Virus record (IMG/VR): IMGVR_UViG_2703718823_000007
Coordinates: 1 to 5,976 of that record
Strand: one strand, 5' to 3'
Length of the DNA stretch: 5,976 nt
DNA from: a virus
Lineage: Duplodnaviria > Heunggongvirae > Uroviricota > Caudoviricetes
Shown here piece after piece: positions 2,321-3,343 of the stretch (position 1 is its first letter; each line of letters opens with the position of its first letter). The notes beneath the pieces were generated by a model. That model made no database searches. It was not told the origin of the DNA and saw nothing but the letters and a program-made list of their open reading frames with translations. The position numbers and the translations under genes were made by a program.

Positions 2321-2423
2321 ACAGCCTTCCCCTGAATAAATTAACCGCCACTTGCCATTCCGTACAGAAGTCGGATATCCTTCGCCCGAAAAGCATGAAA
2401 CACATTTCTGCCATGCTAAACAG

Positions 2424-2459
2424 AAACCCCGGTATCAGCAGATACCGGGGTTTTCTTTC
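2424..2459. terminator. Putative bidirectional intrinsic terminator: perfect 13-bp inverted repeat with 4-nt loop, flanked by A-tract and T-tract
   Basis: AAACCCCGGTATC (2424..2436), loop AGCA, GATACCGGGGTTT (2441..2453), followed by TTTTCTTTC on the plus strand. On the minus strand the same stem is followed by TTTCTGTTT. Confidence 0.5.
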
Positions 2460-2525
2460 ATGCCCACCGATAATCCTGTTGGTTAAAACCGGTAATGGCA
2501 TAAAAATTCTGAATATCTTCACATT

Positions 2526-2553
2526 TTCACACACTGACTGTGGCGCTTATAAT
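2526..2553 (+). promoter_or_regulatory. Putative sigma70-type promoter on the plus strand
   Basis: -35 TTCACA (2526..2531; 5/6 match to TTGACA), 16-nt spacer, -10 TATAAT (2548..2553; 6/6). Predicted start near 2560. Orientation is opposite to the phage late genes. Confidence 0.35.
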
Positions 2554-2559
2554 TTCGCT

Positions 2560-2657
2560 GCGTTAGTGTTTTTTTGCCCGAGTAACAAAAACAACTCCTT
2601 AACATTAATCTTCATTTGTCTGTCCCCGCAGCTCCGCGATCACTGCGGGATTTTTTT
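2560..2657 (+). ncRNA. Candidate small RNA of roughly 100 nt, hypothetical, bounded by the promoter-like element and the downstream hairpin plus T7
   Basis: Inferred only from promoter-like and terminator-like signals in the correct order and orientation on the plus strand. No plus-strand ORF with a ribosome-binding site lies between them. The body contains a CUCCUU anti-Shine-Dalgarno-like motif (2595..2600). Confidence 0.2.
2624..2657 (+). terminator. Putative plus-strand intrinsic terminator
   Basis: GC-rich stem CCCGCAG (2625..2631) / CTGCGGG (2643..2649) with an 11-nt loop, immediately followed by TTTTTTT (2651..2657). On the minus strand the hairpin is preceded, not followed, by the homopolymer, so it is plus-strand specific. 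It lies 6 nt from the I stop codon. Confidence 0.4.
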
Positions 2658-2662
2658 ATGTT

Positions 2663-3343
2663 TTATCCCTGTCGACCAATAACCACCACCTTTCCGTCTC
2701 CGCCTTCATCACGGGTGCTGATGTCCTGAGAGATACGTCGTGAACCAACCAGCATTTCACCGTAGGGCACCGGCATCGGGTTGCCCTGGGCAATCATGTT
2801 GTCCAGTGAGGAAAAATACGTGTTCTGTCTGCCGTTATCCGTTGCGCGGTAATCCGGTGTTTTTGCCTTCGGGGCCAGCATCTGGGCCACACCGCCCAGT
2901 ATCATGCTGGCACCCAGTGAAAACAGCATCGTGGTGGCAGAAAAACCACCGGCTGCCAGGGCTGAACCCCATAACGCCATTGATGCCCCGGCAGTGAAGA
3001 AAGAGCCCACGATGGCTGCCGCCCCCAGCACAATCTGCAGTCCACCCTTTCCGGCCCCGGCCAGTCGCGGCACAATATGGATGACCGTTCCCTCACCCAG
3101 CTGTTCGTGAAGACGGGCGTACACCGCCTCCGGTGCCGTGTCATAACCGGCAATACGTATCTGGTACCAGCCTTCGTTCATCTGAAGGCGAAAGCCCGGC
3201 ATCTGCATCGACAGGGCGCGAATGGCTTCCGCTGCCGTGTTCACATACAGGCTGAGGCGGCGGCCAAATCGTTGTAAATCCCCGTGAAGGCAGATGCGGA
3301 CCAGTGGCGGTGACGCCAGACAGAATGCGTTCGTCGTTGCCAT
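2663..3343 (-). CDS. I: Tail assembly protein I (ubiquitin-like beta-grasp N-terminal domain, Gly/Ala-rich hydrophobic C-terminal half), 226 aa
   Basis: ATG at 3343..3341, stop TAA at 2665..2663. The translation MATTNAFCLASPPLVRICLHGDLQRFGRRL...SLDNMIAQGN...VVVIGRQG matches recalled lambda gpI along its length. The 5' end overlaps the 3' end of K by 103 nt in another frame, as in lambda. Confidence 0.9.
   Translation of the reverse strand: MATTNAFCLASPPLVRICLHGDLQRFGRRLSLYVNTAAEAIRALSMQMPGFRLQMNEGWYQIRIAGYDTAPEAVYARLHEQLGEGTVIHIVPRLAGAGKGGLQIVLGAAAIVGSFFTAGASMALWGSALAAGGFSATTMLFSLGASMILGGVAQMLAPKAKTPDYRATDNGRQNTYFSSLDNMIAQGNPMPVPYGEMLVGSRRISQDISTRDEGGDGKVVVIGRQG

Follow-up and report, generated by a model that had tools for sequence, protein, structure and literature searches.

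Bidirectional Rho-independent terminators consist of a GC-rich stem between an A tract and a T tract and are usually located between convergent genes, and RNA polymerase modified by the lambda Q protein should ignore terminators. Phage morons are promoter-gene-terminator cassettes, which are found between late genes (Juhala et al., 2000, as cited in PMC4104026). At the boundary of the late genes I and J, one described system is the small RNA PasB of the EPEC strain E2348/69, an Hfq-dependent and Northern-confirmed RNA of 83 nt, which is encoded in prophage PP6 between the I and J homologues E2348C_1436 and E2348C_1437 (Pearl Mizrahi 2021, PMC8550237). The corresponding RNAs EcOnc22/23/24 of EHEC Sakai have a length of ~85 nt and are destabilised in the absence of Hfq (Tree 2014, PMC4104026). 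For the hairpin that phage lambda itself carries in the I-J spacer, a literature search found no paper describing a function.

In this study, we analysed a stretch of 5,976 nucleotides, referred to as the window, which represents the tail-tip region of a lambda-like Escherichia coli prophage whose genes all lie on the minus strand. Phage ASU11 contains nearly the same DNA, as do the PPompW prophages of strains that carry Stx phages and numerous E. coli chromosomes. A preliminary description of the window had proposed a second short plus-strand RNA close to the start of J, transcribed from a weak promoter-like pair and ending at a 13-bp hairpin, and had named as a fallback that the minus-strand I-to-J transcript might be terminated or processed at the same hairpin, which the phage antiterminator would normally read through. 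All elements underlying this proposal, i.e., TTGCCA, the 18-nt spacer, TATCCT and the 13-bp hairpin with its T-rich tail, were recovered at the same positions (Table 1), and it is the fallback that our comparison of I-J spacers turned out to favour.

The I-J spacer and its J-proximal block

Table 1. Coordinates of genes and RNA-related elements around the I-J spacer of the window.
Feature	Position	Strand	Remarks
Late genes		minus	order: end of H, M, L, K, I, then J
Gene J (tail-tip host-specificity), 5' part	1-2320	minus	ATG 2320-2318; PGAP start at the position equivalent to 2320
Shine-Dalgarno-like GGGGAAGG of J	2325-2332	minus	4 nt ahead of ATG; read from the sequence
I-J spacer	2321-2662		342 bp
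Module B (long-form J-proximal spacer block)	2321-2505		holds all elements of the hairpin and of the promoter-like pair
Weak sigma-70-like pair TTGCCA-18-TATCCT	2352-2357 / 2376-2381	plus	9/12; no TG extension
Small 5' stem-loop GCAUGA/UCAUGC	2393-2415	plus	6 bp; in the hypothetical plus-strand RNA
Minus-strand T-rich tail	2413-2423	minus	with the TTT of the stem: TTTCTGTTTAGCAT in the window, TTTCTCTTTAG in most copies, TTTTCTTTAG in Sakai Sp12
Perfect hairpin AAACCCCGGTATC-AGCA-GATACCGGGGTTT	2424-2436 / 2441-2453 (arms)	both	from inverted-repeat search; core of the predicted bidirectional intrinsic terminator
Plus-strand T-rich tail	2454-2461	plus	TCTTTCA directly after the stem; with the TTT of the stem: TTTTCTTTCAT
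Second stem-loop, formed only in minus-strand RNA	2461-2504	minus	MFE structure; directly upstream of the terminator hairpin
PasB promoter TTCACA-16-TATAAT	2526-2553	plus	11/12; conserved in every spacer form with PasB
PasB sRNA (EcOnc22/23/24 family)	2560-2657	plus	terminator stem 2633-2649 plus T7 tract
Tail assembly gene I	2663-3343	minus	stop codon 6 nt from the PasB 3' end

Read in the late sense, the stop codon of I is followed by PasB in antisense, the antisense PasB promoter, the hairpin, a leader of 104 nt including the ribosome-binding site of J, and J itself. No minus-strand promoter with at least 8/12 matches was found in the I-J spacer or in the last 240 nt of I, so that the hairpin should be reachable only by transcription from upstream in the late operon and J would lack a promoter of its own. 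A minus-strand promoter driving either a discrete anti-PasB RNA or J was consequently rejected.

Positions 2631-2653 are exactly reverse-complementary to the published Northern probe AATCCCGCAGTGATCGCGGAGCT, and both the EcOnc22 probe and one CLASH read sequence match the body of the PasB RNA. Judged by these matches, the strong unit neighbouring the hairpin is the published Hfq-dependent sRNA PasB, alias EcOnc22/23/24. An assignment of this unit to AgvB (anti-GcvB; Rfam model RF02702, Zhu 2026 preprint) was discarded, as AgvB sits at the PR' moron site and no AgvB hit was obtained here in Rfam. Likewise, a CRAC peak (EcOnc22/24) apparently located 23-84 nt from the start of J is a coordinate artefact, which arose because NC_002695.1 and NC_002695.2 differ by +135 nt at this site; the peak represents the PasB body.

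The J-proximal part of the spacer is formed by a block of 185 bp, here termed module B. At an identity of at least 95%, module B was detected in 1446 of 5426 complete E. coli genomes (27%) across pathotypes, including CFT073 (NC_004431.1, 1364299-1364483) and O157:H7, where the Sakai copy of the long-form spacer is located in Sp12 (NC_002695.2, 2217392-2217732). Window positions convert to Sakai coordinates by adding 2215071 up to 2421 and 2215070 beyond. Module B always lies between PasB and J, with no copy at another place in these genomes or among 50,697 phage records, and most copies are at least 98.9% identical. No divergent homologue emerged from blastn searches at 'distant' sensitivity in phages and E. 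coli genomes, a hairpin-anchored pattern scan of viral contigs returned near-identical copies only, and no source locus of the block was found. The near-identity of the copies points to a recent spread, and conservation can therefore not prove function in this case. A presumed second copy of module B in one phage was rejected, since the double match reflected the palindrome hitting its own reverse complement. In the scan of genome contigs, most matches were J loci identical to that of lambda under records of unrelated organisms such as Neobacillus and Kitasatospora and are taken to be lambda contamination; the remaining ones were two Shigella loci and one Buttiauxella locus.

Variation within the block is unevenly distributed: among 152 viral-contig copies, positions 2345-2410 contain no variable site, whereas eight variable sites fall into 2411-2505. 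Such invariance could arise if a promoter, or the 5' portion of an RNA, were under constraint. The block variants cluster in the A-rich stretch 2421-2426, which corresponds to the minus-strand tail of the hairpin, and the Sakai variant improves this tail to TTTTCTTT. One divergent copy, L191, has the left boundary of conservation between 2344 and 2352, just ahead of the -35 hexamer.

The region had been described as an insert, and this premise holds only approximately. In other spacers, module B is replaced by a different segment of 83-99 bp and is not inserted into it. Similar to morons, module B is a discrete block with a terminator at a gene boundary of the late operon, and the same boundary elsewhere holds a sodC-like gene or tandem sRNA units; unlike morons, its 185 bp contain no convincing promoter or gene product. 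Module B represents a newly delineated allele, whose hairpin, a predicted intrinsic terminator, is of an ordinary type.

A hairpin with terminator features on both strands

The two 13-nt arms of the hairpin are 100% complementary, comprise 7 G-C pairs and enclose a 4-nt loop, and folding of the 10-bp core yields -18.5 to -19.1 kcal/mol. A plus-strand RNA of 78 nt reached -29.9 kcal/mol, compared to -12.5 +/- 2.7 kcal/mol for dinucleotide shuffles (z = -6.5; 0/200 shuffles as good), and the minus-strand fold of the hairpin region gave a z of -5.9. Besides the GC-rich stem, which clearly exceeds 5 bp, and the short loop, an intrinsic terminator features a U-rich tract directly 3' of the stem, and such a tract is present in both directions, namely UUUUCUUUCAU on the plus strand and UUUCUGUUUAG on the minus strand (UUUUCUUUAG in Sakai Sp12). 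The plus-strand tail UUUUCUUUC has four U followed by C; the minus-strand tail of the window (TTTCTGTTTAG) is interrupted as well and weaker than its plus-strand counterpart.

Scoring with our own implementation of a d'Aubenton-Carafa-type terminator score, of which only the relative values are meaningful, was positive on both strands, with +32.9 for the plus strand and +22 to +34 for the minus strand (window: +22). The plus-strand value was surpassed only by the minus-strand variant of Sakai (+34.3). An automated terminator scan did not report the hairpin at 2424-2453, probably because a G.T extension of the stem (2423/2454) takes up the first T of the tail.

Beyond the perfect stem, the flanks extend the pairing, first by AAA...TTT and then by GCATGAAA (2393-2400), the left arm of the small 5' stem-loop, which forms an inverted repeat with TTTCATGC (2456-2463) on the far side of the main hairpin as well. 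From the sequence, this extended pairing resembles that of a bidirectional terminator whose A and T flanks are symmetric, and compared with a longer perfect palindrome, GCATGAAAGAAAACCCCGGTATC, its left arm appears to have been split by a gain of ~22 nt. In contrast to the usual arrangement of bidirectional terminators, the hairpin is not placed between convergent protein genes; it lies inside a unidirectional late operon beside an antisense sRNA cassette. The two-hairpin layout of the minus-strand RNA (Table 1) was also seen in a sub-threshold Rfam alignment.

Late-sense hairpins in other spacer alleles and in lambda

From the fetched loci, 82 I-J spacers were recovered, which fall into four length groups. 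These comprise a short form of 234-254 bp, the long form of 337-344 bp to which the window belongs, a tandem form of 424 bp with two PasB-type units, and a form of 851 bp, in which a sodC-like gene, oriented antisense to the late operon, precedes a PasB remnant that lacks a promoter. In E2348/69, PhiR12_1, Sakai Sp11, Sp15 and others, the PasB cassette is shared with the window and module B is exchanged for an unrelated segment of 83-99 bp.

Every short form with a detectable PasB promoter contains a hairpin, CAGGCAyCC-NNNN-GGrTGCCTG, between that promoter and J. On the plus strand this hairpin is preceded by AAAAACAA, which places TTGTTTTT behind it in the minus-strand direction, and it therefore has the form of a terminator on the minus strand only, in line with scores of +12 to +31 for the minus strand versus -13 to -63 for the plus strand. 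Across ten distinct versions, 98.9% of the cells are paired, compared to 34-43% when the partners were slid. One compensatory change from C-G to U-A and two U.G variants (u23 and u24) were observed, and the U.G pairs of the latter can form in the minus-strand RNA only, being C.A mismatches on the plus strand. As the covariation score was reached by 22 of 500 shuffles and few independent events are available, the pairing evidence is supportive, but short of conclusive.

A hairpin in the same orientation is also present in lambda and in lambda-like Shigella prophages, where AAACCGCC-TGCG-GGCGGTTT, followed by TGTCATTTAT, is located on the sense strand of a 61-bp I-J spacer. Like the hairpin of the window, it lies between the I stop and the ribosome-binding site of J in the late sense and has a GC-rich stem with an A run and a T run. 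Differences concern the stem of 8-9 bp (13 bp in the window), the distance of ~24 nt between stem and J ATG (104 nt in the window), the lack of PasB in the spacer, and the opposite strand, on which only the window hairpin has a good tail too. The short-form spacers of, e.g., E2348/69 PP6, Sakai Sp11 and Sp15 agree with the window in a predicted late-sense intrinsic terminator between the PasB promoter and J, and deviate in that it is restricted to the minus strand, embedded in the unrelated 83-99-bp block and subject to compensatory and G.U variation, whereas the hairpin of the window is invariant. In lambda and the short forms, the hairpin is about 24-45 nt away from the J ATG, and relative to these, the stretch 2321-2423 represents an extra ~100 nt.

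No sequence homology between the hairpins of lambda and the window could be demonstrated. In a MAFFT alignment, the hairpins fall into the same columns with few shared bases (AACAG..CCCCGG). We regard the three versions as sharing their position and, by analogy, presumably their function; common descent is not claimed. All versions share a conserved T tract 3' of the stem (TTGTTTTT, TTTTGTCATTT and TTTCTCTTTAG), and a late-sense hairpin with T tract between the I stop and the ribosome-binding site of J was found in the window, in the short forms with a PasB promoter and in lambda/Shigella. It is this three-version comparison that places a terminator-like hairpin of late sense upstream of J both in lambda, which lacks PasB, and in both PasB forms, with the PasB cassette sitting between the I stop and the hairpin. 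The sodC-like form of 851 bp, inspected by eye, showed no obvious sense-strand terminator beside J, and the late-sense element is therefore not universal.

Taken together, the hairpin at 2424-2453 is on balance probably the I-J intercistronic Rho-independent terminator predicted for lambda-like late operons, in a version equipped with U-rich tails on both strands. In the lysogen, it would halt unmodified RNA polymerase that moves along the late operon, or across the PasB antisense region, before J, lom, the tail-fibre and the effector genes are reached. During lytic growth, Q-modified polymerase would be expected to pass the hairpin, as deduced from the behaviour of lambda Q. In the allele of the window, the plus-strand tail may additionally stop antisense-J transcription short of the PasB promoter. 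The strength of the hairpin, the lack of a minus-strand promoter and the clustering of block variants in the minus-strand tail likewise favour a late-sense terminator, whereas the interrupted minus-strand tail of the window, the 104 nt to the J ATG, the invariance of 2345-2410 and the sodC-like form count against it. The fallback of the preliminary description, a terminator or processing site on the I-to-J transcript, is thus the best-supported reading of the sequence comparisons, considering the minus-strand-only hairpins of the short alleles, the G.U variants and the lambda hairpin, and is better supported than the second sRNA.

The promoter-like pair and a candidate plus-strand RNA

An independent sRNA gene on the plus strand is the strongest competitor, albeit an unlikely one. 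Here, the pair TTGCCA-18-TATCCT would start an RNA of ~72 nt (~2388 to ~2459), composed of the 5' stem-loop, an A-rich (ARN)3 linker and the terminator, which could act as a moron-type riboregulator expressed in the lysogen, like PasB. Besides the PasB promoter, the pair is the only site with at least 9/12 matches on either strand of the window, it lies 43 nt upstream of the hairpin, and the high plus-strand terminator score is in agreement with an RNA ending there. Moreover, the I-J spacer is a proven site of antisense-oriented cargo, including PasB, the sodC-like gene and the tandem sRNA-type units of one locus (L085), and the invariance of 2345-2410 as well as the block edge of L191 just before the -35 hexamer would fit a conserved promoter. 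However, the extra unit among the two tandem ones of L085 uses a duplicated PasB-type promoter instead of TTGCCA/TATCCT, and the positional counterparts of the hairpin in the other alleles and in lambda are elements of late sense.

A sigma-70 promoter should present its hexamers at a spacing of 17 +/- 1 nt and match better than chance. The pair in the window combines a poor -10 element with an 18-nt spacer and lacks a TG extension, and when the 103-nt stretch preceding the hairpin was dinucleotide-shuffled 5000 times, 8.1% of the shuffles contained a site of at least 9/12 and 33% one of at least 8/12. A second candidate, TTCCCA-17-TAAATT (2314-2342), is weaker still with 8/12. The hexamers are unchanged in the 152 viral-contig copies, but equally there is no variant site anywhere in 2345-2410, and their conservation follows from the near-invariance of the whole 185-bp block. 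The TTGCCA/TATCCT pair is therefore most likely a chance match.

The candidate RNA resembles PasB (PMC8550237; PMC4104026; Zhu 2026 preprint) in being short, located in the same spacer and on the same strand, moron-like, antisense to the late operon and equipped with its own terminator. PasB, in contrast, has an 11/12 promoter, diverse alleles, and Northern and Hfq evidence, whereas the candidate promoter is at chance level and the block has no similarity to PasB. Regarding the 3' end, about 6 or more consecutive U would be expected for an Hfq-dependent sRNA, and the U7 of PasB stands against the interrupted tail of the candidate, UUUUCUUU. Rfam searches with the whole window and with the spacer alone gave no family at gathering score and only sub-threshold, terminator-like matches, the best of them generic with 26.8 bits against a threshold of 48. 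Neither with PasB nor with the J initiation region did the complementarity of the candidate RNA differ from that of shuffled sequences.

With respect to published data, the Hfq-CRAC peak table of O157 Sakai lists no EcOnc peak for the Sp12 I-J spacer, which carries the block almost unchanged, and the rows covered of the RNase E-CLASH tables contain no entry named ECs2235 or ECs2236. This absence weighs little, because the PasB copy of Sp12 itself is likewise unlisted in both. The Pas papers make no mention of a second RNA, neither the hairpin sequence nor the tags ECs2235/ECs2236 were found in any paper, and a literature search for dRNA-seq of CFT073 returned nothing. The proposed second short RNA thus gained no support beyond the bare sequence match, with hexamers at chance level, no Rfam family and no CRAC peak or CLASH entry listed for Sp12. 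It would nevertheless be compatible with a terminator role of the hairpin, as the two are not mutually exclusive: if TTGCCA/TATCCT fires at all, a minor RNA of ~72 nt might end at the hairpin terminator.

Further readings of the hairpin

Alternatively, the hairpin could mainly act in the stabilisation or processing of the polycistronic late mRNA, either as a 3' stem protecting M-L-K-I after cleavage or as an RNase III/RNase E site setting the I:J ratio. Since Q-modified polymerase should ignore terminators, any role during lytic growth would in fact have to be post-transcriptional. The maintenance of a late-sense hairpin at this place in three unrelated sequence versions and the G.U variants, which point to selection on the minus-strand RNA, would suit such a function. 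Yet the T tract after the stem in every version is a signature of termination that a protective stem would not need, and we consider a predominant role in stability or processing improbable.

A more far-reaching option would be a compound RNA control node at the I-J junction. The late-sense terminator would then end non-antiterminated transcripts after the PasB antisense, giving an RNA with perfect complementarity to PasB (sponge or co-cleavage) and thereby tying PasB activity and the silencing of J, lom and effector genes to the lysis-lysogeny state, and the long-form hairpin would also close a ~72-nt plus-strand sRNA from the weak promoter. As a whole, this scenario is quite speculative and its probability appears low.

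Even more doubtful is a functionless relic, i.e., foreign DNA such as an old convergent-gene junction with a bidirectional terminator, which was fixed by recombination with one J allele and hitch-hikes with PasB. The near-identity of the block everywhere and the lack of any divergent homologue in the phage records would be expected for such DNA, and so would the seemingly broken left arm of the hairpin. Against this speak the presence of the block in more than a quarter of the complete E. coli genomes across pathotypes, the functionally equivalent hairpins at the same place in other alleles, and the failure to find a source locus.

A small protein gene is hardly tenable: open reading frames exist on the minus strand (2301-2534, 66-77 aa; annotated as hypothetical protein in the record of phage ASU11) and on the plus strand (2296-2682, 128 aa), but coding was rejected because natural 1-nt deletions (Sakai Sp12, MS20657 and copy u16) frameshift the former and 2-, 3- and 5-nt indels between alleles break the latter within PasB, which it crosses, so that neither frame is kept among homologues, and because family hits are lacking (no Pfam hit, PHROG hits only at E > 0.1), with neither frame featuring a Shine-Dalgarno sequence and no PGAP annotation here.

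Relevance for prophage annotation and regulation

About one in four complete E. coli genomes, O157:H7 Sakai and CFT073 among them, carries module B beside PasB without annotation. Assigning its hairpin to the late operon itself, as the I-J terminator, protects against annotating a spurious sRNA. It also clarifies the architecture of the PasB cassette, which is set between the I stop and a late-sense hairpin that PasB-less lambda has as well. If the terminator works in lysogens, it would help to explain how J, lom, the tail-fibre and the effector genes are insulated from stray transcription. If, on the other hand, the weak promoter were active, the block would add one more prophage sRNA to pathogenic E. 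coli.

Among further small RNAs, HnrS (EcOnc10-12) is listed at ~2.234 Mb in Sp12, roughly 17 kb off the I-J spacer, and MavR is located in O-island 48.

Sequence variation and repeats in the J-proximal block

Across 152 viral-contig copies of the block adjoining J (window 2321-2505), the segment holding the candidate promoter hexamers and the 5' stem-loop is invariant, and the segment that follows it contains eight variable sites (see table). The invariance may mean that the J leader, a promoter or an RNA is under constraint, or else that the copies share a recent origin. The block also takes part in two pairs of direct repeats, one of them reaching into the coding sequence of J, and both pairs may be recombination or duplication scars.

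Features of the I-J region (window coordinates)
Feature	Position	Strand	Detail
Segment with hexamers and 5' stem-loop	2345-2410		0 variable sites
Following segment	2411-2505		8 variable sites
Direct repeat 1	2353-2369 / 2409-2425		TGCCATTCCGTACAGAA / TGCCATGCTAAACAGAA; 76% identical, 56 nt apart
Direct repeat 2	2303-2310 / 2344-2351		ACCGCCAC, two copies; J codons 4-6 / immediately before the -35 hexamer
Break in L108 and L069	2471 (equivalent)		continues into TGTAGTGGTCAAGTAATATTGGCCAC...
PasB unit	2526-2657	+	promoter to terminator
Gene I, from first ATG	2663-3343	-	226 aa, overlapping K
Gene I, PGAP	2663-3244	-	193 aa, start further downstream

The neighboring PasB unit

The strong promoter-terminator unit beside the 13-bp hairpin is the published Hfq-dependent sRNA PasB, alias EcOnc22/23/24, which carries no annotation in the RefSeq and GenBank records. 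The EcOnc sRNA coordinates were published on NC_002695.1 and, around 2.17-2.90 Mb of the Sakai genome, lie approximately 135 nt below those of the current RefSeq record NC_002695.2. Peaks of EcOnc22 and EcOnc24 falling on the hairpin region were accordingly rejected as an artefact of unconverted NC_002695.1 coordinates, their true place being PasB. In two comparison loci (L108 and L069), the hairpin is parted from the PasB promoter by divergent sequence, which begins at an abrupt break and presumably resembles an IS3-family insertion-sequence end.

Alternative spacer architectures

A 424-bp I-J spacer with two tandem PasB-type promoter units is found in L085 (IMGVR_UViG_2606217173_000002). Since its J-proximal unit has a differing RNA body and a terminator of its own (CCTCCCG...CGGGAGCGTTTTTT), it is possibly an uncharacterised PasB paralogue. 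Eight further loci, i.e., L049, L064, L061 and five others, feature an 851-bp spacer containing an ORF (MKCKIIAAIAML...), judged by eye to be sodC-like, with its own terminator and oriented antisense to the late operon. After this ORF comes a remnant of the 3' part of PasB, lacking the PasB promoter, and no obvious late-sense hairpin adjoins J in these spacers.

The 61-bp I-J spacer of lambda (L013 1140-1200, lambda-identical DNA; also L018 and L019, both Shigella flexneri prophages) contains a hairpin on the sense strand, AAACCGCC-TGCG-GGCGGTTT, with TGTCATTTAT directly after it. Its stem lies about 24 nt from the J ATG, and a literature search found no paper describing this hairpin. The J N-termini of L013-L017, from Neobacillus, Kitasatospora, Pseudomonas, Chromatiales and Aquabacterium records, each match the query at 79% identity. 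The upstream spacer, inspected in L013 and L017, is identical between both and is one that we take to be lambda's. Most likely, the L013-L017 matches represent lambda DNA contamination of those assemblies.

The start of gene I is annotated in two ways, PGAP giving the shorter product and other annotations the longer form.
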